The notes under the pieces were generated by a model, which was not told where the DNA came from, did no database searches, and saw nothing but the letters and a program-made list of their open reading frames with translations. Below are positions 18,142 through 30,096 of a stretch of DNA of 64,000 bases, piece after piece. This DNA comes from an uncultured Bacteroidales bacterium (GTDB lineage Bacteria; Bacteroidota; Bacteroidia; Bacteroidales; UBA1402), in the NCBI GenBank assembly GCA_942493385.1, contig OW818699.1:1686808-1750807 (forward strand), read 5' to 3'. Both the position numbers and the translations under genes were made by a program. Each line of letters begins with the position of its first letter. The stretch's first letter is position 1.

Positions 18142-18573
18142 ATGAAAGAATTCAAGTACACCATCAACGGAAATTCTTACACCGTTGAAATCATTAAAGA
18201 AGACGGTGCCGAAGTTGAACTGACTGTTAATGGTACAGCATATACCGTAGAAGTTGAAGAGGAAATCATCGAATTGCCCAAAAAGATCACGCGTCCTGCC
18301 GCCGCCCCGACCAAACCCACTGGTGAACCGGTACTGGGTGTCAAAAAGAACGTCTCCTCCGGTGGCGCCGTAAAAGCTCCGCTACCAGGTGTCATTCTCG
18401 AAGTGTGCGTCAAGGTTGGCGACACGGTGAAAGTAGGCGACAAAGTTCTGCTGCTCGAAGCCATGAAGATGGAAAACACCATTGCTAGCGACTTGGCTGG
18501 TAAGGTTCTGGAAATCAAAGTCGAAGCCGGCACCACTGTCCTAGAAGGTGCGGAAATGATCATGATCGGATAG
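18142..18573 (+). CDS. Biotin carboxyl carrier protein (biotinyl domain)
   Basis: Start at the ATG at 18142 (MKEFKYTING). Has a Pro/Ala linker and the biotinylation motif EAMKMEN. Confidence 0.85.
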   Translation: MKEFKYTINGNSYTVEIIKEDGAEVELTVNGTAYTVEVEEEIIELPKKITRPAAAPTKPTGEPVLGVKKNVSSGGAVKAPLPGVILEVCVKVGDTVKVGDKVLLLEAMKMENTIASDLAGKVLEIKVEAGTTVLEGAEMIMIG

Positions 18574-18597
18574 ATGTCTCAATAGAGCGTATTGCCC

Positions 18598-18635
18598 AAA
18601 AAAAAGAGCTTGTATTAATAATGCAGGCTCTTTTT
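18598..18635. terminator. Bidirectional intrinsic terminator (BCCP gene / gldL)
   Basis: AAAAAGAGC...GCTCTTTTT with additional imperfect inner pairing (TTGTATTA/TAATGCAG). An A-run lies on one side and a T-run on the other. Confidence 0.55.
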
Positions 18636-18654
18636 GGTATAAAACGATAAGTTT

Positions 18655-19488
18655 TTATTCTTTCTTCATCATTCCTATCATATTCTTATAATTCTTGTTC
18701 AGGGTCGAGAGGTTACTGTTGAGTTCTTTCATTTGGTCGCGGTATTTCTTAGTTTCGACAGCCGATTCGGACATATCCTTGAGATATTCTTCCGCACCCT
18801 GTACCTGAACCCGATAAATGGAATTCAACGTATTCAAATTTTTGTTGAGCGATTCCAGCTCCATCTGATATTTTTTGGACTCTTCCTCAATCGAAGTCAG
18901 CGAACTGGCAATGCTTTGATATTTGAAGACCGTCTTGGATGTAACTCGCAGGATGGATGATTCATAAGCTTTGGCCAGTCGTTCTAGCGATTCATCGGCA
19001 ATTTCGATGGTTTTCATGTATTTGGTCGAAGCCGCAAAGACATCGCCCATCGTATTCATGTGTTCAGCCGTGTCACCAAGCTTTCGCAGGCCATCTCCGA
19101 AGCGAAGCAATAAATCGGGCGTAATGTCACCATTCATCAACATCTCGTCAAATTTGGCCAGCGCCAGGGATCCATTGCCATCATCCACCAGCTTGCTGTT
19201 CACCCGACGTGGTACAATTTCCTCCTCTTCATCATCAGCACTCAGGATTACGTTTGGATAAACCAAAGGCGGATGTTCATCATCCTGACTTTCAAAAGCG
19301 TAAAAGAAGAAAATGATGGCTTCCGTCACCAAGCCGGCAGTTAGCATGTAATCCGCTCCTGCCCAATGCTCCAATTTGAATAGGGCACCTAATACAACGA
19401 CAGATGCGCCAAAACCATACAGTTTTGTCATGGCAGCCTTAAAGCCCCTGGTCTGCGTCAATCGTTGTATTTGTGCATCTAAGCCCAT
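18655..19488 (-). CDS. gldL: GldL/PorL-like motor protein
   Basis: KLYGFGASVVVLGALFKLEHW and LTAGLVTEAIIFFFYAFE are the two N-terminal TM helices characteristic of GldL. A cytoplasmic coiled-coil-like tail follows. Confidence 0.85.
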   Translation of the reverse strand: MGLDAQIQRLTQTRGFKAAMTKLYGFGASVVVLGALFKLEHWAGADYMLTAGLVTEAIIFFFYAFESQDDEHPPLVYPNVILSADDEEEEIVPRRVNSKLVDDGNGSLALAKFDEMLMNGDITPDLLLRFGDGLRKLGDTAEHMNTMGDVFAASTKYMKTIEIADESLERLAKAYESSILRVTSKTVFKYQSIASSLTSIEEESKKYQMELESLNKNLNTLNSIYRVQVQGAEEYLKDMSESAVETKKYRDQMKELNSNLSTLNKNYKNMIGMMKKE

Positions 19489-19520
19489 AGATCAAATTTT
19501 ATTGTAAAGATAATGCAATT

Positions 19521-21134
19521 TTACTTTATAGTAATGAAGAATGGTGGAAGATTCCGCTTATCATTTCCAGGTCCATTGACAATGATTTCTTCAAATAGTA
19601 GCACTTGTCCTCGATTCGTTCTCCGAATCTCCTGTATCATTTCATCCGTCAGATTATCGTTGGGTGAATCATAATTGTAGGTATTGAAACCACGATCCAT
19701 CGTCAACCTGAAACTTACGACCTGAAAAACGTAATTAAAATCAAAATCCACAGGCATCATCGGTACGATTTTTCCTGCCGAAAGGATATTTTCACGAGTA
19801 ACAAAGCCATCTTTTCTTCCGGAAATGGTAGGAGTCGGATCCGGTAGTTTCTTGATACGAAAAGTTTGCGTGCCTATCAACTTCAAACCATCATTCGACT
19901 TGATGGAAACCGATACGACCGCTTCTTTTGCTGTTGGTGGCACTATACAAATCCATCCGCTACTCTTAGGGTCCTGCTTGATAGTGCCGACAGATATGGT
20001 CGGAGAAAGGTTCTCCATCGGAATTCCAGTGATGGAAACGGACAGTGGATTTTCCACCCCAGCATAAAGTACGTTCATATTGGTGGGAGAAACCGTCACA
20101 ACAGGAGGTGCTACAAAATACTCCCCTTTGAAATGATAGGTCCGTTCACGTCCGGAAGCCGTAGGTACACTTACAAATCCAGCGTATTTTTGCATTCCTA
20201 AAGCAGTAGCTGGAAATTTGATATTTAATTTACCCTTATCCCTTGCTACGAGCGTAGCCTGGCCTTTTTGATCGACCGTCATGCTGTCCACTCCTTTCAT
20301 CAGGTATACGCTTGGACTTGGGGTGTGGCTGGTGTCATAAGCAGCCACAATCACTTCCGCTTCAAAATCATCACCCGTAAACAAATAATTAGTTTTTGGC
20401 AGCACCTTCGCTTCAATCCGGTCGTACTTGAAATCCTCGGCGATGCTTTCCCTAAGAAGTCCATTAACCACTTCCAATTCCGCATTGTTTACTTCCGAAA
20501 TCAATTTGTTCAGAATCGGAATATCGGCTGCCAGCGGAATATCATAGAAGTAATGGTGTTCCCAGCTTTGCAACTTGCCAAAAGCATCTTTGTATTTGTC
20601 CTTCGTGTCAAGACCCAATTGAATATCCTTCCTATTCGACGGATTGATCAGCTTCAAAATCTTTTCCCGATATGCACTTATCTTGTTTTTGAGTTCTCTT
20701 GCCTTACCCTTGGAGCCACTTTCCAAAGGTCCGATCATAATTTGCGTTGGTATCGTATAGTTATCCTTTTTCCGCAAATCTCTAATGCTCATTTTGCGGG
20801 CAGAATCCAAGGGTACCTTCTCTGTGACTGCAATTAATTCGTCTCGCATATTTGCGATGTAACTCACCATCTCGGTCGAAAGCTTCATGGCCACTTTTGC
20901 CTTATCCCAGAATGGACCGACCTCAATTTGGTTCATGGTGAACTCCTTCTGGAATTCTTCCACTGTCATTTTACGTTTATCCGGAAAACTTTCATTGGTT
21001 GAAAGCACGGTGTCATTCACCGTCGAGTAACCCTCCAGCACCTCTTTCGAAACATTCAGGGCCAGCATTGCCGTCAGCACGAGGTACATCATGCCAATGA
21101 GCTTTTGCCTGGGTGATTCTTTTTGGTGGGCCAT
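19521..21134 (-). CDS. gldM: GldM/PorM-like motor/periplasmic shaft protein
   Basis: The N-terminus SPRQKLIGMMYLVLTAMLALNVSKEVLEGY is the GldM signature TM region. Length is 537 aa. The GldM_C-like end reads ...LLFEEIIVNGPGNDKRNLPPFFITIK. Confidence 0.85.
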   Translation of the reverse strand: MAHQKESPRQKLIGMMYLVLTAMLALNVSKEVLEGYSTVNDTVLSTNESFPDKRKMTVEEFQKEFTMNQIEVGPFWDKAKVAMKLSTEMVSYIANMRDELIAVTEKVPLDSARKMSIRDLRKKDNYTIPTQIMIGPLESGSKGKARELKNKISAYREKILKLINPSNRKDIQLGLDTKDKYKDAFGKLQSWEHHYFYDIPLAADIPILNKLISEVNNAELEVVNGLLRESIAEDFKYDRIEAKVLPKTNYLFTGDDFEAEVIVAAYDTSHTPSPSVYLMKGVDSMTVDQKGQATLVARDKGKLNIKFPATALGMQKYAGFVSVPTASGRERTYHFKGEYFVAPPVVTVSPTNMNVLYAGVENPLSVSITGIPMENLSPTISVGTIKQDPKSSGWICIVPPTAKEAVVSVSIKSNDGLKLIGTQTFRIKKLPDPTPTISGRKDGFVTRENILSAGKIVPMMPVDFDFNYVFQVVSFRLTMDRGFNTYNYDSPNDNLTDEMIQEIRRTNRGQVLLFEEIIVNGPGNDKRNLPPFFITIK

Positions 21135-21218
21135 ACTTGATTACTTAATAAATAGGTCCAAGTCGGTTGTGTTTTTGAACATAAATTGTACCTTGATCGT
21201 TATCGTTTGTATGTATTG

Positions 21219-21226
21219 CAAAAGTA
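21219..21226 (-). promoter_or_regulatory. -7 box TACTTTTG upstream of gldM
   Basis: The minus-strand sequence matches TAnnTTTG, 85 nt upstream of the gldM ATG. No convincing -33 element was seen. Confidence 0.25.
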
Positions 21227-21325
21227 TTCGATGTTTTGCATATTTCCTAATGCGGCACATAATTCTCAAATTATCAGAAAAGAAGAATCCCAGCCAATTT
21301 CAGGCGCTATTTGGAGCATAATTTG

Positions 21326-21793
21326 TTATTGTAACCTATAATTCAAAGTTACTGCATAGGTGCCCGGGTGTAACTGCGAAAAATCAGAAATGAAAACATT
21401 CTGAGTAAGGATGACTGTTTTATTGCTTGCATACCATATACCTGTAATTATTGATTGATAATAGGTAGCGACGGTAACTAACCCTGTGGTGGAGCCTGCC
21501 CAATTACCACTAGGCTGTGCTGCCTGAACGGTATAGGTCATGCCAGGTGGGACAGAGTTGGATAAAATATCGATGTTTCCAACAATACCATCGCCTAAAA
21601 ATGGCCATGAATATTTGACAGATTGTGACGTGTAAGCAACTATTGGGTTAGCTGGAGTAGCTCCTGCTGTTGATGTTTGAAGCGTATAAGCGTTGGGACT
21701 CAATGTCAAAGGGGTTAAGGAAATCCTGCTTTGTGCCCAAGTACTACCACCCAACAAGGTAATAAACAATAGAAAAAAACATCTTTTATTCAT
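21326..21793 (-). CDS. Small secreted pilin-like protein (post-usher position)
   Basis: Signal peptide ending TWAQ. The mature N-terminus has alternating hydrophobics (RISLTPLTL). The C-terminus HPGTYAVTLNYRLQ resembles the GxY...Y-x-Q end of chaperone-usher/SCPU-type subunits. Confidence 0.45.
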   Translation of the reverse strand: MNKRCFFLLFITLLGGSTWAQSRISLTPLTLSPNAYTLQTSTAGATPANPIVAYTSQSVKYSWPFLGDGIVGNIDILSNSVPPGMTYTVQAAQPSGNWAGSTTGLVTVATYYQSIITGIWYASNKTVILTQNVFISDFSQLHPGTYAVTLNYRLQ

Positions 21794-21799
21794 AATCGG

Positions 21800-24424
21800 T
21801 CACTTTTTAATTAGATTATTCTGGAATTGAATTTGTCTTGCTTTCTTTTGAATGACGACATCAATTTTTTCGTGTTTCCCGGAAGTCAAATCAATGGTGA
21901 AATTACTATTTAAAAGTTTATAACCCAAAGGTATTCCATTAGGATATATTTTTATTTGCCATTTGTCTGGTCGTAAGTCATCAAAACGGAACGTACCTTC
22001 CTTGTTAGTATAAATTCGGTAAATATCCTTGCCGTTGCTTGCTTCCACAATGAGCTTTTCAATGGTTTCCTTGACTGGAATGTAGCCCTTTTGATTGGCA
22101 CGTTCATCTTCTTGAACCATTATTCGTCCTGAAATACTGCCCGAAGATGTTAAGGCACATTCAAACAACGTCACTTTGCTGGGTTCTACAAGAATCTTGA
22201 ATGGGCCTGGCGTTTCCGTTATCGTATTCAACCCCATGGAGGAAGCATCGATGTTCATCAGGTACTCTCCTACAGGAATTGCTGGAAACTTGAAATTGCC
22301 ATCTTTATCGGTAATGCAAATATTTCCGTTCAGATTCAACAAAAGCCCACCAACCTTTTCCACTCCATGATTGATGATCTTGCCGCTCACACTCCCAATA
22401 TTTTTCTTTTTAGCTATGGGCATGTTCAAATTGTGAACATAGCGCAATTGAACGTTGTATTCTTTTTTGTCAAGGGTGTTTTTAACTAGGTTGTAGTTGG
22501 CTGTCAGGTTTATTTCGTTGTTGTCGTTAATTCGTCCGAAAAGGTTCATCGAGAACAAACTTCTGTCTGAGGTATAGTAACGCCACTCATAATTACTGTT
22601 GTATTGCAGTGATAACGATAGGCGGTCCTTCATATTGGCAATAAATGAACCACCATAATAAAACTGATCAAAACCTGTCACATTTTTTTGCCCACCCTGA
22701 TAGGTGGAGAATGCACTGGCTGAAAAACTTTTATTGAATATGTAGAACATGGTAAAAGTACTGTTGTAGAACAACGACTCATCCACTACTATTCCGGGTA
22801 GATGATTTTGCATTTTTCCAACATCGGCAATCAGTGCCAGGTTGAACGACTTTAATTTGCTTTGAAGGGATATTCTACCACTTGTTTTGTCGTAATCAAA
22901 CAAAGGTGTTGGTGATTGGTCTTCTAAGCTAACCATATTGCCTGCCAAGGATAAGGTATTTTGCTGTGAAATTCTATAACTGGCAGTCATATTGATGTTT
23001 TTGCTGTGGGGCATGTTGGCATACAACGTATCCAATGCCATATTGGTGCTGTTTACGTCGTAATTGACCGAAAGTGAAAACTTCTTCAACTGAATGGCGG
23101 ACCCGACATTCATACGAAGGCTGTTGGTAACGAATCCAGGAAAATTGGGTTCTGCAAACAGGTATACCAAATGCGTGCTGAATTTGGGGATATTGAGATT
23201 TATGGTTGCCTTGTAAGCTTTTGTTAATTTTGAAGTGGCTTGTCCCATTGCCAGTTCTGCTTCCGTGCTGATAATGGAGAAAAGATTGTTGTGTGCAGAA
23301 ATCGTATACAATTGCGTGCGATTGTTCAATGTATCCGATTTCGTTAGGAATCCGGCCGACAATCCGTTCCTGGGGTCGAAATTGAACGATGAATAGGCCG
23401 CTGCCACTTGTTTGATTAGTGGATAATAACGTGGTACATTGTAGTAGGTCCCAATGGTCCATTTGTTCAAACGATACCGCAGTTCAAGCCCACGTCCGTT
23501 TCTGGAGGACTCTGTCAATTCACTTAATCCGAAATTATAGTCTCCTACAGCTGTAAAAAATTTTGAGGTACGAAATTTGAGATAATACTCATCATTCAAG
23601 CCAAATAATGGATTACCCGTTCTATCGGGACCGCGCAGGTGAAAATCAACGTTGGTATCCCCTTTTTTCCCAATCGCACCTGTACCCTGAATGTCGTACA
23701 TGCTACTTATCATTTGATTGCCCAACCGATTGCTGGCTGCAAAAATTCCAGATATTTTGATAGGAAAGCGTTCGTATTTGTCAAACTTGACCGCTTCAGA
23801 TGGAAATATGTCGTACGAAGAATACACTGAAGATTCTGTCTCCGGCTTGTCAACTACTTGCGCTATCAAAATGACCGATTGTTGCGTATGACCGTCAACT
23901 TTTTTTGCCGTTTTCGAATGAAAAGTTGTTACAATACCAGAATCCTTTGGAATGGAGAATTCTTCAATCTTACTTTCGGATCCCCTGAGTGTAGTCGTCT
24001 TTATTTTTACATCCAAATTGGAGAAATTCTGAATGAGATAACTTATGTTCACCTCATCACCTGAAAATATATACGAAGGAGATTTCAATTTTGTAATTGA
24101 AATCTCATATTTTGGCCTTACTTGAATGGGTATGTCAATTTTTCCGAACGGAATGTGACCAGGCAACTCCAACACTTCAACAGACAGATTAAAGTCACCG
24201 GCACGGATACTCTGTGATATTTGTATACCGATAACTTTTTTTAGACTGGAATTCTTTTCGATCTTGATGGATGAATAATCCGCAATCAACTTGCCGTTCA
24301 CTTCGTTGTTGCTAAACTTGATTTGAGCTTCTTTATCTTCGTTCGTAGGATTGTTGATCACTACAAGCATGTTGATGGTAGCGCCCGGTTCAACTTCTTT
24401 TTTTTGTGGTGAAAGTACCTTCAA
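21800..24424 (-). CDS. Outer-membrane beta-barrel protein with periplasmic beta-sandwich domains (usher-like); 5' end requires a frameshift to reach the ATG at 24501
   Basis: The track ORF starts at a TTG. The frame stays open 37 more codons upstream and encodes ...NRFNCFFLIVLRSSALA. Two N-terminal Ig/CARDB-like repeats cover about aa 1-215. A central ~470 aa has an amphipathic beta-strand pattern (LRYRLNKWTIGTYYN, SLSLQYNSNYEWRYY). Two C-terminal CarboxypepD_reg-like domains follow (GSVSGKIINHG...DKDGNFKF and GSISGRIMVQ...NKEGTFRFDDL). Confidence 0.5.
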   Translation of the reverse strand: MKVLSPQKKEVEPGATINMLVVINNPTNEDKEAQIKFSNNEVNGKLIADYSSIKIEKNSSLKKVIGIQISQSIRAGDFNLSVEVLELPGHIPFGKIDIPIQVRPKYEISITKLKSPSYIFSGDEVNISYLIQNFSNLDVKIKTTTLRGSESKIEEFSIPKDSGIVTTFHSKTAKKVDGHTQQSVILIAQVVDKPETESSVYSSYDIFPSEAVKFDKYERFPIKISGIFAASNRLGNQMISSMYDIQGTGAIGKKGDTNVDFHLRGPDRTGNPLFGLNDEYYLKFRTSKFFTAVGDYNFGLSELTESSRNGRGLELRYRLNKWTIGTYYNVPRYYPLIKQVAAAYSSFNFDPRNGLSAGFLTKSDTLNNRTQLYTISAHNNLFSIISTEAELAMGQATSKLTKAYKATINLNIPKFSTHLVYLFAEPNFPGFVTNSLRMNVGSAIQLKKFSLSVNYDVNSTNMALDTLYANMPHSKNINMTASYRISQQNTLSLAGNMVSLEDQSPTPLFDYDKTSGRISLQSKLKSFNLALIADVGKMQNHLPGIVVDESLFYNSTFTMFYIFNKSFSASAFSTYQGGQKNVTGFDQFYYGGSFIANMKDRLSLSLQYNSNYEWRYYTSDRSLFSMNLFGRINDNNEINLTANYNLVKNTLDKKEYNVQLRYVHNLNMPIAKKKNIGSVSGKIINHGVEKVGGLLLNLNGNICITDKDGNFKFPAIPVGEYLMNIDASSMGLNTITETPGPFKILVEPSKVTLFECALTSSGSISGRIMVQEDERANQKGYIPVKETIEKLIVEASNGKDIYRIYTNKEGTFRFDDLRPDKWQIKIYPNGIPLGYKLLNSNFTIDLTSGKHEKIDVVIQKKARQIQFQNNLIKK

Positions 24425-24470
24425 CTCCAGTTTACTATCAATAGCCAGAGCGGAAGAACGTAATACTATT

Positions 24471-24479
24471 AAAAAAAAA
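24471..24479 (-). repeat. T9 homopolymer (minus strand), either a -1 slippery site or an indel-prone tract at the usher-like gene 5' end
   Basis: The minus strand reads ATG TTT CGA ATC GTT TCA ATT GTT TTT TTT TAA. A -1 shift, or one extra T, joins MFRIVSIVFF to LIVLRSSALAIDSK... in the main frame. Confidence 0.6.
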
Positions 24480-24532
24480 CAATTGAAACGATTCGAAACA
24501 TCTATCAGGTTTTTGACAATCTGCGCCTCACC

Positions 24533-25333
24533 CTAAAAATAAAGTGTATATTCCAATCCAAATACATCATCATCCGCACCAGCGGCAACGATCATGGCCG
24601 TATATGTTTTTTTGGATGGAACACCCTCTAAGTCCAACTTGAATCGGGCTGAAGTGGTTGGATATAAACCACGTTTGGGTGCTGTAATTTTTTTAACCAA
24701 AATGCCGTCTTGATCATATAGTTCAATGCTGACTTCAGGAGCGATGTAGTGTTGACCTTCGTTCAACAAGTCGATGGCTAGGTAAAGTTTCTTGCCTTCT
24801 TCGGCTTTTATAAGGGTAGGATCCATGAACTTGAGTTTTCCTGTACCCCTATTGTTGATTTCATTGACTACTTGAACCGCATATCTTGTTGCAGTCCGAA
24901 TACTTAAGTCACCCTTCTGATTCGGGTCAATAGGATCAACACCTTCAACCATGATGACGCTCCAGTAAGAGCCAATGATGGAGTCGCCTTTTGGAACTGT
25001 TATTTCATATTCAACATTACGTGATTCCTTGCTTTTTAAGACGACAGTTCTTGGACTATATTGTATCCAACTGGCATTGGATCGTTTTTGTCCACCAGGT
25101 TCATCGTAAAAGGTTTGTTCTTGAAAGTTGAATAGGAAATCTGTTTGGTAGATTCTAACTTCCTGATCGGCGGCATCATTATTTTGAATCTTAATTTGTC
25201 CCTTGACAACATCACCGGGATTGGTATTGTATACTTGCTTTAAACTTCCAATAACTTCGACGGATGCCATTAAACCTACGGGAAGTAAAAATAAGTAGCA
25301 AATAAACAGGATAAGCTTTTTGTTTAGCATCAT
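24533..25333 (-). CDS. Periplasmic two-beta-sandwich protein (chaperone-like, PapD/DUF916-like pattern)
   Basis: Signal peptide (LLPVGLMA). The segments VVKGQIKIQNNDAADQEVRIY and YSPRTVVLKSKESRNVEYEITVP...SYWSVIMVEG resemble the Ig-like chaperone pattern. It lies immediately upstream of the barrel gene. The fold is not verified. Confidence 0.4.
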   Translation of the reverse strand: MMLNKKLILFICYLFLLPVGLMASVEVIGSLKQVYNTNPGDVVKGQIKIQNNDAADQEVRIYQTDFLFNFQEQTFYDEPGGQKRSNASWIQYSPRTVVLKSKESRNVEYEITVPKGDSIIGSYWSVIMVEGVDPIDPNQKGDLSIRTATRYAVQVVNEINNRGTGKLKFMDPTLIKAEEGKKLYLAIDLLNEGQHYIAPEVSIELYDQDGILVKKITAPKRGLYPTTSARFKLDLEGVPSKKTYTAMIVAAGADDDVFGLEYTLYF

Positions 25334-25393
25334 GGTTCTGATTTAAAGCATTAAGAATAAGTTAAAATGAGCTGGAAAACGTATCAAACACCG

Positions 25394-25401
25394 CAAATGT
25401 A
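25394..25401 (-). promoter_or_regulatory. -7 box TACATTTG upstream of the chaperone-like gene
   Basis: The minus-strand sequence matches TAnnTTTG, 61 nt upstream of the ATG at 25333. Confidence 0.3.
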
Positions 25402-25515
25402 TTCGTAGTTTCTTAAAAAACCTAATTTAACTTATTAAAATATACTTTTAGAACTAAAAAAAAAACTACTAAACCCTTTTGAACAGCTATTTTCAGTTTG
25501 TAAAGCGTAGAAATC

Positions 25516-26094
25516 CTATTGAACTGCCGTCAATGTAAAAGTGACAACAATTTGTGCACCAGTGGTGGCTCGTAGTGTTCCATACGTGGCTGGATTGACA
25601 TCCAACGCATAACTGAACTTCAATGGGTATCCGTCTGCTGCTCCCTTACCTGAATAACAGGATGCGATATTGGTAATAATCGGCCTGTCTGTACCATCCA
25701 AAGTTGTCGGAGCAATAAAGACTCCTGTTTCACCTGCAAAATTGGAGTTTGGTTGTAAAACCGAAAGTTCAAGATGGGTGCCTGGAGGTACGGTTCCTGC
25801 TGTAATCTTTGCCGAAAGTGTTCGAGTCATTGAAGAGGAGATCACAGAAGACATCAAGAGTCTGGCTGTAGAGTCAGATGCGCTTACTTCAACGGAAAGC
25901 CCGGCATCTTGCTGGTTTAATTGCAAATTGATGAGGTCGGCACTTGTTTTTACCAACGAGACTTCCGTAATTCCCAGCGTAATGGTCGTAGACGAAGAAT
26001 TGGTTGCGCTCGTAGAACCCTCCTGGGCGAAAACTCTATAACTGTTTAACAACAGTGCGCAAAATATTCCAATGATCGATAGCTTTTTATACAT
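25516..26094 (-). CDS. Secreted pilin-like paralogue P1
   Basis: Signal peptide ...RVFAQ. Family motifs are RLLMSS, TRTLSAKI, SCYSGKGAADGY and the C-terminal IVVTFTLTAVQ. Its ATG overlaps the upstream gene's stop (ATGTATAA). Confidence 0.5.
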   Translation of the reverse strand: MYKKLSIIGIFCALLLNSYRVFAQEGSTSATNSSSTTITLGITEVSLVKTSADLINLQLNQQDAGLSVEVSASDSTARLLMSSVISSSMTRTLSAKITAGTVPPGTHLELSVLQPNSNFAGETGVFIAPTTLDGTDRPIITNIASCYSGKGAADGYPLKFSYALDVNPATYGTLRATTGAQIVVTFTLTAVQ

Positions 26095-26650
26095 TGGTAT
26101 CGGATGCTACAGTGGAAATGGTATAAGTAACAATAATAGTTGCACTTCTAAGGATTGGCGCGTTTGGGATGGCCTTGTAAACGTATCGGATAACATAACC
26201 GTCATCCTCCGTTTTTCCCGACCAACAGGTTCCAATTCCTTCTGCAAGAGTTACTTCCGTTTCGTTCGAAAGTAGTTTTTCGCCCGTAAGAGAACCTCGA
26301 TTTTCTGGATAAACAAAATTACCGTTAGGTTCCTTCAATTCTACATGAAGTGTAGTGCCAACCAATGCCTCCGAAATTTTGGCGGTGATGGCTCTCGTTT
26401 CGCCGTTATTTACAAGTGACGAAATCCTTAATCGAGACTTGTCATTCTCGGCAGCTTGTTGAATCGCATCACCAGCCTCAACAGCACCCGCCAATATCAA
26501 CTTGACGGGTGGCCCTGCTACAGCCAGTAAAGCAGACCCAGCTACTTGGAGGTCAATGGATTGTGTAACAACCCTTGTGTCCTGAGCATAGACTGATAAG
26601 GGCATCAGCAATAAGGAAAGACCTATAAAATATACAAATACCCTTTTCAT
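26087..26650 (-). CDS. Secreted pilin-like paralogue P2
   Basis: Start taken at the ATG at 26650 (MKRVFVYFIGLSLLLMPLSVYAQ); the track begins at a TTG at 26671. Motifs are RLRISS, TRAITAKI, TCWSGKTEDDGY and IIVTYTIS. Confidence 0.5.
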   Translation of the reverse strand: MKRVFVYFIGLSLLLMPLSVYAQDTRVVTQSIDLQVAGSALLAVAGPPVKLILAGAVEAGDAIQQAAENDKSRLRISSLVNNGETRAITAKISEALVGTTLHVELKEPNGNFVYPENRGSLTGEKLLSNETEVTLAEGIGTCWSGKTEDDGYVIRYVYKAIPNAPILRSATIIVTYTISTVASDTNV

Positions 26651-26727
26651 AGTCGATATCATATCATACAATGTCTCTCAAACCTTAAAAGGTTCTAAAG
26701 ACATTTGAAAAAAAATTAACAACGAAA

Positions 26728-27324
26728 TTATACCGCTGCTGTGATCGTGTATGTAATGACTATGTTTTGACTTTGCATGAAGGTCGCATCGGCTTTTTTG
26801 GCATATCTATATGTTACAGTATAACCATCATTGTCACCCATGCCCGACCAGCAAGTTGTTATGTCAGAAACTATCGTCTTGCTCGAACCATCTGTCAATT
26901 CTTGTTCTGTAGCAGGTGTACCACCATTGGCTACTGCTGGAAGAAAACTTTCTGGTTTGGTGAGTGAAACGAAAAATTGGGTACCTGTATTTGTGATTGC
27001 AGGGGAAATGCTTGCAGTAATAGTCCTCGTTTTTCCACTCTCAACCAGGGAAGATATCCTAAGTCTCGTGTCCGAATTGCTGGCCTGATCCATGACGGCC
27101 GCACCAGCTTGTGTTGCTCCGGACAAGGACATCGAAACAGCTGTGGAAGTACCAGCATTAATGTTTGTATTGAAAACAGCCAACAATGCGGAGCCATTTA
27201 CTTGAAGGGCGATGTTCTGTGAGACATCAGCGCCGGAATTCCCTGGGTTTTGTGCCGTCGCGATCATAGGCAAAGTAGTGCCGATAAGTAAAGCGATGCA
27301 TTTTAATAACGATGTTTTTTTCAT
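26728..27324 (-). CDS. Secreted pilin-like paralogue P3
   Basis: 198 aa with signal peptide ...IATAQ. Motifs are RLRISS, TRTITASI, TCWSGMGDNDGY and NIVITYTITAAV. Confidence 0.5.
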   Translation of the reverse strand: MKKTSLLKCIALLIGTTLPMIATAQNPGNSGADVSQNIALQVNGSALLAVFNTNINAGTSTAVSMSLSGATQAGAAVMDQASNSDTRLRISSLVESGKTRTITASISPAITNTGTQFFVSLTKPESFLPAVANGGTPATEQELTDGSSKTIVSDITTCWSGMGDNDGYTVTYRYAKKADATFMQSQNIVITYTITAAV

Positions 27325-27409
27325 TTTATTGAATGTTTTAGCTTTTGGATGTTTCTCAGTTTATATCAACGACTTTGTAATGAGCAAAAGATAAGCCGAG
27401 ACTTCCAAA

Positions 27410-28006
27410 TTATACTTCGGCAGTAATTGTATAGGTGATGACGATGTTCTGACTTTGTAGGAAAGTAGCATCAACTTTCTTGGCATAACGGTAAGTGACA
27501 ACGTAACCATCCGTTGCACCTGTACCTGACCAGCAGGTTGTAATGGCAGAAACGACAGTCTTGGTTGTTCCGTCAGTCAGTTCTTGTTCAGCTGCAGCAG
27601 TTCCACCATTGGCAGCAACAGGTTGAAAGGTTCCGGGTCTTGTCAGTGCAACAAAAAACTGTGTTCCAGAAGTTGTAATTGCTGGAGCGATGGCTGCAGT
27701 AATGGTTCTGGTCTTGCCGCTTTCAACAAGTGACGAAATTCTAAGTCTGGTGTCAGCGTTTGTGGTTTGATCCAAAATGGCCGCACCAGCTTGTGTGGCA
27801 CCGGTCAATGACATGGAAACAGCCGTAGAAGTTCCTGCATCGGCATTGGTGTTTACAACCGCCAATAGAGCAGACCCGTCTACTTTAAGTGTAATATCCT
27901 GTGTAACAGTTGCAGCAGATCCGCCGGGATTTTGAGCGGAAGCGAAGAGGGGCATGGCTAAACAAGTCAATAATGCGATGCTTTTGACCAATGAAGACTT
28001 TTTCAT
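27410..28006 (-). CDS. Secreted pilin-like paralogue P4 (candidate major subunit)
   Basis: 198 aa with 146/198 identical positions to P3 by ungapped hand alignment. It follows a 312-bp regulatory gap that has its own -7 box. Confidence 0.5.
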   Translation of the reverse strand: MKKSSLVKSIALLTCLAMPLFASAQNPGGSAATVTQDITLKVDGSALLAVVNTNADAGTSTAVSMSLTGATQAGAAILDQTTNADTRLRISSLVESGKTRTITAAIAPAITTSGTQFFVALTRPGTFQPVAANGGTAAAEQELTDGTTKTVVSAITTCWSGTGATDGYVVTYRYAKKVDATFLQSQNIVITYTITAEV

Positions 28007-28057
28007 AATTTTTGTGTATTAAAATGATTGAAATTTGAGTTGCTATTTTATGGTTTA

Positions 28058-28065
28058 CAAAGATA
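28058..28065 (-). promoter_or_regulatory. -7 box TATCTTTG upstream of P4
   Basis: The minus-strand sequence matches TAnnTTTG, 52 nt upstream of the ATG at 28006. Confidence 0.35.
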
Positions 28066-28079
28066 GGTCAGAAAAACAG

Positions 28080-28106
28080 TTATGTACACTAGGTTTCCGT
28101 ACATAA
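28080..28106. promoter_or_regulatory. 8-bp perfect inverted repeat TTATGTAC-N11-GTACATAA
   Basis: Read directly. It overlaps the expected -33 region of the P4 promoter. On the minus strand it is followed by ACTGTTTTTC, so an operator or a weak terminator are both possible. Confidence 0.3.
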
Positions 28107-28318
28107 AAGATACGAAGTACCATTCTTTAAGGATACAAAGAGGAAACATGTTCCTAAGCATATCACTAGGCAAACCTAAATCATTTTTAGCAATGACAAC
28201 CATGGTATTTGCCTGATTATACTTCAGGATTACAGATATTTAGTATCAGTAAAATCCTTAGAAAAGACTTCCTCTTTTAAGAAGTTAAAAGTAGTCAAAA
28301 ATATTAACAGTCAGATAA

Positions 28319-28891
28319 TCAATTGCTTGTTATCGTGTATGTGACTGTTATCGGTGCATTGGCTATCGCTCTAAGTAGAGCATAGTTCGCTGGATCAACA
28401 CTCCAGTAGTAGGTGAGGTTGAACCCATTTGTTGACGAAGATCCGGTATACCCACTGCCAATGCTGTTTATAAGCGTTGTGTTGATATTCTTGAGCAAAG
28501 TGATCTGGCCCGATGGTGTTCCGCGGTTACCAGAACCTGAAGAAGAGCTAGACGCAGTCAGTTTGAGGAGCGTACCGGCAGGTACAAATCCGCTAGTGAC
28601 GGATGCCATGATCCTTCGAGTTTGGTTGGCTGGAGCAATGGATGTTAATTGCAAGTAAGATGCATTATTTGTTTTTGGAGAAGTTGTTTCCCCTGCAACT
28701 GAGGCCAATAAGTTCATACTGATTGTAGTCAAAGGATTAATTCGGATAAGGCTCACATCATTGATGGTTATAGTGAACACATTAGTAGTATAGACCTGAG
28801 CAGTTGCTTTTCCGTACAAGACCAGTGAAAGAACGATAAACAAAAGATACTTCCACCTATAGGTTGAATTTCGAATGGTGGTGTTATTCAT
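28319..28891 (-). CDS. Secreted pilin-like paralogue P5 (divergent, Cys-less motif)
   Basis: Signal peptide ...GKATAQ. Motifs are TRRIMASV, GSGYTGSSSTNGF and PITVTYTITSN. Its ATG overlaps the P6 stop (ATGAATAA). Confidence 0.45.
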   Translation of the reverse strand: MNNTTIRNSTYRWKYLLFIVLSLVLYGKATAQVYTTNVFTITINDVSLIRINPLTTISMNLLASVAGETTSPKTNNASYLQLTSIAPANQTRRIMASVTSGFVPAGTLLKLTASSSSSGSGNRGTPSGQITLLKNINTTLINSIGSGYTGSSSTNGFNLTYYWSVDPANYALLRAIANAPITVTYTITSN

Positions 28892-29453
28892 CTGAATTGA
28901 TTGTATAAATTACACGAATACGTAAATTGGCAAGTAGTTCGCTTTGAATGTAATCCGGATCATAGCCCGGTTTGAGTTCCCATGAAAAAGTTAGCAAGTG
29001 CCCTTTGTTATCTCCTTGGCCAGTGTAACAAGATCCAATATCTGTGATGATTGCCTGAGGTGCCGTAGATAAATAGATGGGAATGGCCGGTTTCCCAACT
29101 TGCCCGTAACCGGCACCGATATCTGGTCCGACTTTCAGCTTAATGGCGATTTCAGCAGGTAAGTCGCCTGAAGCAAGGCTTGCACAAATCGTATTGGTTG
29201 AATTGCTTACGATGACAGAGGAATAATTAATCCAAATCGTATCCACGGTCGATGGCGCTAGTTTCCGATCTTTGCCTTCGCCAGTGAAAAGAGAGAACTT
29301 GAGTTCGGAAGATCCCATGCTCAACTTGGCGCTTGGTGGTATGGCCATTTGGACCGGCAATTTGCCAGTGTTGTCGTTCTCTTGAGCTTGCAGGCGGAAG
29401 TCTGCAACAATCAAAAGCAATGTGAACATAAATACGTTGTACGTCATTCTCAT
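28884..29453 (-). CDS. Secreted pilin-like paralogue P6 (divergent)
   Basis: Start taken at the ATG at 29453 (MRMTYNVFMFTLLLIVADFRLQAQ), preceded by AAGGAGG-caag; the track begins at a TTG at 29474. Motifs are SCYTGQGDNKGH and RIRVIYTINSDE. Confidence 0.45.
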   Translation of the reverse strand: MRMTYNVFMFTLLLIVADFRLQAQENDNTGKLPVQMAIPPSAKLSMGSSELKFSLFTGEGKDRKLAPSTVDTIWINYSSVIVSNSTNTICASLASGDLPAEIAIKLKVGPDIGAGYGQVGKPAIPIYLSTAPQAIITDIGSCYTGQGDNKGHLLTFSWELKPGYDPDYIQSELLANLRIRVIYTINSDE

Positions 29454-29463
29454 CTTGCCTCCT

Positions 29464-30096
29464 TTAATATACAATGCCTTGCTTCATAGCATACTTGACC
29501 AGTTGGGCTAAGTTGTCAAACCCCATTTTGTCAAAGATGTTCTGTTTGTGTGTTCCAACCGTCTTAATGCTGATATAAAGAGATTCGGAAACTTCACGTA
29601 CAGATCTACCCTCAGCCAAAAGCCCTAGTATTTGTGTTTCCCGTTTTGTCAAAGTGGCAGATAAATTGGTGTTCCTTCCAAGGTATTCATCGATGATAAT
29701 GCTTTCAACATCCATACCCACTGCCTTTTTTCCATTATTTATTTGCCTGATGCCGTTCAATAAGTGTTCGAAAGTGCAGTTCTTCAAGTAATATCCATGA
29801 ACACCGGCTGTCAACGCTCCTTTAATATGTATTTTTTCAGAATGTGATGTTAATGCAATTATTTTGCAATTTGGGTGCTCCATCAGGATCATCTGAGTTG
29901 TTTCAATGCCCTTCAACCGAGGTAGACATATATCCATGATTACCATATTCGGTCGCTTTTCTTTTACCCTTGAAAGAACTTCAACCTGATCCTCTGCTTC
30001 TCCGATGGCTTCAATATCGTCGGTTTCGCTGAATCTGTAGGCAAGAAGTTCCCTGAACAACTTATTATCATCTGCAAGTAAAACAGATATCTTCAT
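29464..30096 (-). CDS. Response regulator, NarL/FixJ (LuxR-type HTH) family, no adjacent kinase
   Basis: Receiver domain (LLADDN..., MVIMDICLP, KIIALTSH) plus a C-terminal LuxR HTH (LTKRETQILGLLAEGRSVREVSESLYISIKTVGTHKQNIF). Confidence 0.85.
   Translation of the reverse strand: MKISVLLADDNKLFRELLAYRFSETDDIEAIGEAEDQVEVLSRVKEKRPNMVIMDICLPRLKGIETTQMILMEHPNCKIIALTSHSEKIHIKGALTAGVHGYYLKNCTFEHLLNGIRQINNGKKAVGMDVESIIIDEYLGRNTNLSATLTKRETQILGLLAEGRSVREVSESLYISIKTVGTHKQNIFDKMGFDNLAQLVKYAMKQGIVY

Follow-up and report, generated by a model that had tools for sequence, protein, structure and literature searches.

Gene content and constraint at the locus

The window, a 64-kb stretch of DNA from an uncultured Bacteroidales bacterium, carries on its minus strand a locus headed, by synteny, by a LuxR/NarL-type response regulator gene (29464..30096). 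Downstream are six paralogous genes (25516..29474) for secreted proteins of 190-198 aa, putative fibre subunits that have no sequence match in Pfam, NCBIfam or the PDB, their profile returning merely insignificant Ig light-chain matches (E 0.3). These are followed by a gene for a secreted, 266-aa protein whose predicted fold is chaperone-like, with two Ig-like domains (24533..25333; TAG at 24535-24533) and by the body of a large usher-like gene (21800..24472), which reads from a Leu codon, TTA (24472-24470), to a stop at 21802-21800. Directly after the usher-like gene comes one for a 155-aa subunit-like protein (21326..21793), and then (18655..21134) a GldM-like (19521-21134) and a GldL-like (18655-19488) gene, recognised by the Pfam domains GldM_1st-4th and GldL_N; synteny across ~45 loci shows that gldM-gldL homologues are conserved directly downstream of the locus. 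Literature searches turned up no relevant account of a chaperone-usher-like system in Bacteroidota or of an usher linked to GldLM.

The AF2 model of the usher-like protein (pLDDT 87) comprises two N-terminal beta-sandwiches, a large beta-barrel (~residues 217-685) and two C-terminal prealbumin-like domains, in that order, and Foldseek ranks the ushers FimD and PapC as its best matches (E 6e-15 to 1e-8, at a TM of only 0.29-0.36). For the 266-aa protein (AF2 pLDDT 80; homologues 64-94% identical), a Foldseek search of the PDB returned WxLIP (E 2e-11) and then the chaperones FimC, Caf1M, CfaA and CsuC (E 1e-10 to 1e-8), with a TM on target of 0.5-0.6 for the chaperones. Pfam identifies only C-terminal CarboxypepD_reg/SpaA domains in the usher-like protein, Usher PF00577, PF00345 and PapD_N/PapD_C gave no Pfam match at E <= 0.1, and sequence-profile searches of the PDB with the usher-like, chaperone-like and subunit families returned nothing significant. 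The labels 'usher-like' and 'chaperone', attached to these proteins in an initial annotation of the locus, hold in the predicted models at the level of fold only (FimD/PapC for the first, FimC/Caf1M/WxLIP for the second) and do not extend to Pfam membership.

Purifying selection acts strongly on the body of the usher-like gene, which shows no decay: dN/dS is 0.028 between the window and orthologous locus L003 and 0.066 between the window and L004, and the window's dN is not raised. No other gene is disrupted, either in the operon or elsewhere in the 64 kb. The ORF pairs 30375/31207, 61047/62453 and 6733/8696, considered as extra frameshifts, all proved to be start-codon over-extensions.

Frame structure at the T9 tract

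The sole ATG (24501-24499, minus strand) opens a 10-codon ORF (24469..24501), which reads ATG TTT CGA ATC GTT TCA ATT GTT TTT TTT TAA (MFRIVSIVFF*). Its TAA (24471-24469) takes as its first base the last T of a T9 homopolymer (24479-24471) lying in the signal-peptide codons of the usher-like gene, the only homopolymer of at least 9 bases in the coding regions of the window. The gene body, 874 codons without a start codon, is in the -1 frame relative to this ATG; from the upstream TAG onward, 36 codons of the body frame (GEAQIVKNLIDVSNRFNCFFLIVLRSSALAIDSKLE) are free of stops and include no ATG, GTG or TTG before a TTG is reached at 24424. A further tract, A8 (24398-24405; CAA AAA AAA GAA, or QKKE), is in frame, undisrupted and conserved in orthologues. 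On recheck, the frame layout, the sole ATG and the positions of T9 and A8 were all as initially annotated.

In the ATG frame, GT T_TTT_TTT TAA also constitutes a perfect X_XXY_YYZ slippery heptamer with the 0-frame stop directly after it. No downstream stimulatory structure was found (91 nt fold at -13.2 kcal/mol, z +1.33), nor was any surrounding structure in the 101 nt around the site (z +0.30). The T run was considered as a terminator and ruled out, as it has no GC-rich stem.

With one T added, the gene again encodes a precursor of 900 aa, which signal peptidase is predicted to cut at ALA|IDSK, between 24443 and 24442; the N-termini of homologues agree, which bears out the proposal that the ATG and signal peptide are part of the large gene. 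Nearly all of the 94 homologues found are 896-902 aa long and cover 100% of the repaired 900-aa query, and ~90 of about 900 aa start with an in-frame Met and a signal peptide. The repaired N-terminus that had been put forward (MFRIVSIVFFLIVLRSSALAIDSKLELKVLSPQKKEVEPG) is nearly identical to the genuine N-termini of the closest homologues: the closest reads MLRIVSIAFFLIVLSSSALA|IDSK, the same as the repaired window sequence, P0002 reads MLRIVSIAFFLIVLSSSALAIDSKLELKVLSPQKKEVEPG, near-identical to it, and orthologues begin with MLRIVSIAFFLIVL... This match shows that the resemblance is not due to chance, and we read the ATG and the short ORF as the gene's true start together with the n/h-region of its signal peptide, severed by the frame change.

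At the DNA level, close orthologues align with the window base for base except at the tract, where they have 10 bases against 9: T10 in L004/L006/L076-79, C+T9 in L003/L080 and CTC+T7 in L005. The 31-nt spacer from the upstream stop to the ATG (24502..24532) is kept in the DNA alignments of close orthologues, and the ATG and its context are conserved in the window, yet out of frame. Among the 54 loci examined, the majority carry an in-frame ATG and signal peptide. Some orthologues use TTG or GTG starts, and in several the usher start is apparently weakened otherwise, for example by an out-of-frame ATG overlapping a TTG start. The sister lineage with T10 is in frame in 5/5 contigs from different samples, after 19 further places carrying mostly the same neighbouring proteins had been collapsed. 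In a distant lineage, L029 (the same as L075) carries a T13 at the corresponding site, out of frame, in assemblies that are apparently short-read metagenomic ones.

Several other candidate disruptions among the homologues were followed up. The short homologue P0067, checked for a further frameshift, is L029/L075 itself, with its genuine out-of-frame T13. P0074 (L073) has a 7-nt tandem duplication and an in-frame TTG start, P0089 (L074) has an in-frame ATG and owes its truncation to the gene caller, and L011, taken for start-less, has an in-frame ATG 24 codons upstream that overlaps the 3' end of the 266-aa gene. By cluster look-up, the window's proteins occur in one NCBI record only; exact-protein look-up of the 266-aa and annotated 856-aa proteins yielded no other contigs of the same strain, and a scan of a genome collection yielded two distant loci only.

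From the encoded peptide and the window's codon usage, T10 is expected ~2.9% of the time. In a set of 36 orthologues, the T runs within the first 30 codons do not exceed those of a synonymous-codon simulation (median P 0.54), and P is below 0.1 in three loci only: L003 and L004, which belong to the window's own clade, and L001 (P 0.097). Within the window's clade, the T9-T10 tract exceeds the codon-usage expectation (P ~0.02-0.03 per locus, with the loci sharing one ancestral event).

Origin and consequences of the one-T deficit

Taken together, these findings make it highly probable that T9 represents a lineage-specific, non-programmed one-T homopolymer indel and not a conserved programmed frameshift. 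In its normal form the gene is a single uninterrupted ORF, leading from the ATG through a Sec signal peptide (MFRIVSIVFFLIVLRSSALA|IDSK) to a mature outer-membrane protein of ~880 aa with the usher-like fold. The signal-peptide core, Val-Phe-Phe-Leu (GTT TTT TTT TTA), is one T short in the window, and the missing T throws the ATG and first 10 codons into the +1 frame relative to the rest and converts TTA-A into TAA. The slippery heptamer and the adjoining stop are explained in the same way, because both are an automatic by-product of removing one T from GTT TTT TTT TTA A.

Four explanations had originally been offered, of which homopolymer error and slipped-strand length change now lead, while ribosomal frameshifting and non-canonical initiation are unsupported. 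The T may be missing from the organism's DNA through a recent slipped-strand deletion, for which we put the chances at close to even and which would switch the usher off, or almost so, and the fibre with it. With a probability only a little lower, it may be missing from the record alone, as a homopolymer under-call. The division between mutation and artefact is one that we infer; the two are about equally likely and are inseparable from sequence alone.

Transcriptional slippage is the best-documented bypass of a T9 frameshift in bacteria (PMC1088944, PMC6260861) and is missing from the four original explanations. Nine-base A/T runs are prone to slippage and able to rescue disrupted ORFs (PMC1088944), and U insertion by the E. 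coli RNA polymerase rescues -1 reporters at 5% on T7 and 10% on T8, rising with length (PMC6260861). If T9 is genuine, RNA polymerase would be expected to slip on the T9/A9 template and to add a U in a few to ~10% of transcripts, recreating the exact wild-type precursor, so that the gene would be leaky; -1 ribosomal slippage on U_UUU_UUU next to the UAA would make a much smaller contribution. By analogy with E. coli, Thermus and Shigella, we infer that some full-length protein probably leaks through in this way.

A genuine T9 could also be the product of selection, the T tract being a contingency locus that reversibly switches the usher and the whole fibre, with T10 ON and T9 OFF. The tract sits among the signal-peptide codons at the 5' end of a gene for a surface organelle and sets that gene's frame, the gene body is intact and constrained, and T9 (OFF) and T10 (ON) alleles occur in sister lineages, the window and its sister being different species. 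The clade's excess over codon-usage expectation (P ~0.02-0.03) points the same way, and the out-of-frame T13 at the same place in a second lineage shows that frameshifts of this kind arise repeatedly and keeps a selected ON/OFF switch conceivable. Against this, T runs are not over-long across the family, the sister lineage reads T10 in frame in every one of its five contigs, and a C interrupts the tract in L003/L080 and L005. Phase variation, as initially suggested, keeps its frame-setting tract, lacks enrichment across the family and finds weak support; we regard it as unlikely. Similarly improbable is a fuller version in which a genuine T9 would be the OFF or low state of a reversible switch, leaky by RNA-polymerase slippage, controlling the pore of an undescribed Bacteroidales chaperone-usher-like fibre system genetically coupled to a GldM-GldL-type proton-driven motor, with the independent T13 allele as a second instance.

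Programmed recoding, in which a fixed T9 would be decoded by transcriptional slippage or by -1 frameshifting on U_UUU_UUU_UAA to set a low usher:chaperone ratio, is very unlikely. The heptamer is perfect and its stop immediate, T9 is long enough for bacterial RNA polymerases to slip on (PMC1088944, PMC6260861), mxiE and tssM are precedents, and several orthologues seem to weaken the usher start by other means. However, the split is found in no close orthologue and is lacking in nearly all of the ~90 homologues, and only the distant L029/L075 (T13) shares an out-of-frame tract. The 0-frame product is a 10-aa peptide for which a function is implausible, the heptamer with its stop follows automatically from a 1-nt deletion, and the site is without a stimulatory structure. 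In E. coli, heptamers without a stimulator shift ~2-10 times over a background of ~0.05%, well under 1%, and U_UUU_UUU shifts weakly when no stimulator accompanies it (PMC4066793). Programmed -1 frameshifting, as first proposed, is unsupported: relatives are in frame, RNA structure is lacking and the heptamer is a by-product of deletion.

Least credible of all is initiation in the body frame itself, whether from a non-AUG codon ahead of the tract, from TTG 24424 or from the annotated internal ATG: the frame is open back to 24532, some orthologues use TTG or GTG and the public annotation (P0001, 856 aa) begins at an internal Met, but the 36 upstream codons include no ATG, GTG or TTG, the conserved ATG and its context are still present out of frame, and any start in the body frame, TTG 24424 and the internal ATG included, would forfeit the signal peptide that the homologues all carry, which is incompatible with a beta-barrel protein.

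Under the one-T deficit that we favour, the public 856-aa model, which lacks a signal peptide, would be better annotated either as a precursor of 900 aa whose homopolymer is discrepant or as an allele carrying a frameshift. Should T9 be real, the strain probably makes little or no fibre, and it would be a naturally occurring example in which to study transcriptional slippage in Bacteroidota. Greater value attaches to the setting: the broken gene, which encodes the putative pore, belongs to a chaperone-usher-like operon that is conserved and unannotated and has gldM-gldL homologues behind it in every case. This operon is more interesting than the tract and merits study whatever the tract proves to be.

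Comparison with known systems

The T9 tract resembles sites at which non-programmed transcriptional slippage rescues genes disrupted by indels, in that a sense T9 directly precedes a premature stop and one U in the mRNA restores the long ORF; examples include E. coli reporters, poly(A) genes of Buchnera/Blochmannia, the A11 of Citrobacter rodentium tssM and the T run of Shigella mxiE (PMC1088944, PMC4256274, PMC6260861, PMC5009743). The splits of mxiE and tssM are conserved, and each of their two products matters, whereas the split in the window is unique to one genome record and its short product is 10 aa. The programmed -1 sites of dnaX (A_AAA_AAG) and IS3/IS911 likewise share with the window an X_XXY_YYZ heptamer with perfect -1 re-pairing, and the window site differs from them in lacking a stimulator, conservation and a functional 0-frame product.

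Repeat-mediated phase variation of surface proteins is familiar from Neisseria, in the CTCTT repeat of opa and the poly-G of pilC. As in the CT repeat of Helicobacter pylori oipA (PMC10564699), a hypermutable 5' signal-peptide repeat sets the frame of an outer-membrane or surface-organelle gene. Phase-variation tracts are conserved, population-polymorphic and over-long, whereas the window's tract is not family-enriched and is C-interrupted in close relatives, and the five contigs read from its sister lineage are monomorphic (T10).

The locus as a whole is most readily compared with chaperone-usher pili (FimC/FimD, PapD/PapC, Caf1M/Caf1A, CsuC/CsuD), with which it shares a matching gene set and order: several small secreted subunits, a periplasmic protein of two Ig domains and an outer-membrane barrel of ~900 aa with flanking beta-sandwiches. 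It departs from them in having neither PF00577 nor PF00345, in the low TM of its usher-like protein (0.29-0.36) and its CarboxypepD_reg-like C-terminal domains, and in a 266-aa protein whose best fold match is the Gram-positive WxLIP. Unlike these systems, it resides in Bacteroidales, with gldM-gldL homologues as its invariable neighbours.

Sequence at the start of the usher-like gene

The start of the usher-like gene was read on the minus strand at positions 24300-24700 of the window, with both frames translated, and every element described in the initial annotation (TAG, open frame, lone ATG, T9 and A8) was present. The upstream 266-aa gene ends in a TAG (24535-24533), after which the usher-like frame runs through 36 codons without a stop to the TTG at 24424, the start of the listed 874-aa ORF (21800-24424); translation of these 36 codons yielded no ATG, GTG or TTG. 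The only ATG ahead of the usher-like body (24501-24499) lies in the other frame and reads MFRIVSIVFF followed by TAA, the first base of which is the last T of the T9 tract (24479-24471), while the A8 tract lies at 24398-24405. The longest homopolymer of the window, a minus-strand T10 (25456-25465), sits in the 183 nt that separate the 266-aa gene from the last subunit gene, and no GC-rich terminator stem was detected beside it.

Searching with the 900-aa protein obtained by adding one T returned 94 homologues, nearly all of 896-902 aa and covering 97-100% of the query. Those with the highest identity (87, 85 and 81%) start with MLRIVSIAFFLIVLSSSALAIDSK, MLRIVSIVFFLFIICSSSALAIDSK and MARIVSIALFFFVLGTSALAVDSK, matching the N-terminus reconstructed in the initial annotation almost residue for residue. 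When orthologous DNA was aligned, the spacer, ATG and flanking codons matched the window exactly, and ten bases stood opposite its G+T9: C+T9 in two loci (L003, L080), T10 in six (L004, L006, L076-79) and CTC+T7 in one (L005). Because orthologues have ten bases here, the window lacks one T of what is otherwise a conserved single ORF; comparison of orthologous loci, a check proposed earlier, thus found one continuous ORF in close orthologues and a missing T in the window. With T9, the usher-like body shares its frame with the 266-aa gene (24425-24535), and since only the TAG and 36 sense codons lie between them, read-through of the TAG would fuse the two proteins; this shared frame is probably a coincidence of the deletion, as T10 puts the two genes in different frames.

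The feature of the record is real and was correctly read. The public annotation hides the lesion: its model (P0001, 856 aa, 21800-24370) begins at the internal Met of MLVVINNPTNEDK and carries neither a signal peptide nor a frameshift flag.

Origin of the missing T

The usher-like gene body has undergone no long-term decay: dN/dS of the window is 0.028 against L003 and 0.066 against L004, rough values because dS is near saturation, and its dN is not raised against the L003 versus L004 comparison. Ten homopolymers of at least 8 bases occur in the window, among which the T9 is the only one both at least 9 bases long and inside a gene. All other genes of the window are intact; three suspicious overlapping ORF pairs were considered as further frameshifts and rejected as start-codon over-extensions. 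As the gene body is undecayed and the other genes are intact, the lesion is very recent, reversible, bypassed or artefactual.

The best explanation, and very probably the correct one, is that a ten-base tract lost a single T in a lineage-specific, non-programmed event. This likelihood is shared roughly evenly between a recent slip mutation, which would leave the usher-like gene in an OFF or leaky state, and an assembly that under-called the homopolymer; sequence alone cannot separate the two. Look-ups for a further assembly or for reads of the same strain found none.

Evolved phase variation at the tract is an unlikely alternative. Using the window's own codon usage (TTT making up 0.49 of Phe codons), a T run of at least 10 arose in 2.9% of synonymous re-codings of the repaired peptide. 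For 36 orthologues whose starts are clean, the longest run of T within codons 1-30 was not above that simulated (median P 0.54), with P < 0.1 at only three loci, L003 and L004 of the window's own clade and L001 (0.097). In the T10 sister lineage, all five contigs read, each from a different sample, carry T10 in frame; 19 further sister-lineage places, outside these five contigs, were collapsed as sharing most of their neighbouring proteins. Mutations clearly concentrate at this site, although the tract does not resemble a contingency tract shared across the family.

Programmed recoding is more doubtful still. The heptamer and adjoining stop that the initial annotation called a perfect slippery site are indeed present, but they are no evidence of design: removing one T from GTT TTT TTT TTA ATA gives GTT TTT TTT TAA, so that heptamer and stop are automatic by-products of the deletion. 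Nor was a stimulatory RNA structure found, as shuffled sequences fold at least as well as the 91 nt that follow the tract (z +1.33), and the 101 nt around the tract give z +0.30. In E. coli, -1 shifting at heptamers that lack a stimulator is only 2-10-fold above a background of about 0.055%, and UUUUUUU is under-represented in genes, a bias for which transcriptional slippage and indel mutation probably account (PMC4066793). Non-canonical initiation, in which translation would begin in the usher-like frame itself, is the least probable of all.

Transcriptional slippage was absent from the earlier list of explanations. If the T9 is genuine, RNA-level slippage would most likely be the source of residual full-length usher-like protein. 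With the RNA polymerase of E. coli, which favours poly(T), insertion rescues -1 reporters at a rate of 5% on T7 and of 10% on T8, climbing with length (PMC6260861); Shigella mxiE, Thermus dnaX and Citrobacter tssM are among the functional precedents. No terminator-like hairpin was found before the T9 run.

Start regions in other lineages

One metagenome scan yielded 67 loci. In most of them the 266-aa gene closes with a conserved ...GLEYTLYF* and is followed at once by an in-frame ATG and a signal peptide. Among the loci examined, a T-tract split is confined to the window and one distant orthologue (~47% identity), whose sequence is identical in a JGI and an ENA metagenome assembly (L029 and L075). 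There, the ATG frame reads MKVESATALPFFFFF and then a T13 (L029 4014-4026; L075 1421-1433); the mature protein lies in the -1 frame, which would need one more T or two fewer. This T13 is a further out-of-frame T tract in the signal-peptide core, independent of the one in the window. The gene is called as a truncated 862-aa product (P0067), and RNA polymerase slippage on the T13 should produce transcripts in all frames.

Other loci depart from the common arrangement in different ways. Six (L016, L030, L019-L021 and L073) have an in-frame TTG start with an overlapping out-of-frame ATG 7 nt upstream (ATGAAAATTGA, ATGAACTTTGAGG, ATGAAAGTTGAAAGTTGC), an arrangement that in L073 originated in a 7-nt tandem duplication, and three (L023, L035, L064) have a mini-ORF of 2-3 codons (ATG NNN TAA) ahead of a TTG or GTG start. 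These putative decoy starts may hold usher translation low relative to the upstream gene. The start region of the usher-like gene is evolutionarily labile.

Protein folds and the conserved operon

Pfam matched only C-terminal CarboxypepD_reg/SpaA-type domains in the usher-like protein, and NCBIfam gave no meaningful match. Its AF2 model (82 sequences, pLDDT 87) has a large barrel flanked by two beta-sandwiches on the N-terminal side and two on the C-terminal side. The ushers FimD and PapC lead its PDB matches (E 6e-15 to 1e-8, TM 0.29-0.36), with TonB-dependent receptors ranking behind. The 266-aa protein (24533-25333; AF2 pLDDT 80) belongs to no Pfam family; among PDB folds it matches WxLIP of the Enterococcus faecium WxL loci best (E 2e-11), just ahead of the Gram-negative pilus chaperones FimC, Caf1M, CfaA, CsuC, FaeE, SafB and EcpB. 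Given these matches, the labels usher-like and chaperone-like hold at the level of fold, but not as sequence-family membership. The 266-aa protein is far better conserved among homologues than the usher-like protein (64-94% versus 34-87% identity).

The frameshifted gene lies in a conserved, unannotated operon (18177-30096 of the window, minus strand; L001-L066), which we consider more notable than the frameshift, itself of low interest. Its order is a LuxR-type response regulator, paralogous secreted proteins of ~195 aa (six of 190-198 aa encoded ahead of the 266-aa and usher-like genes), the 266-aa chaperone-like protein, the ~900-aa usher-like protein, a small subunit-like protein, GldM-like and GldL-like proteins and a conserved 128-aa protein. 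In ~45 of the ~50 loci with enough downstream sequence, the usher-like gene is followed by GldM, across usher identities of 34-87%. A limited literature search found no description of a chaperone-usher-like, GldLM-linked system, and the coupling of a fibre or pore system with a proton-driven motor would, if true, be new. In contrast to canonical gldKLMN, the operon has no adjacent gldK or gldN and places gldM before gldL, the reverse of the canonical order.
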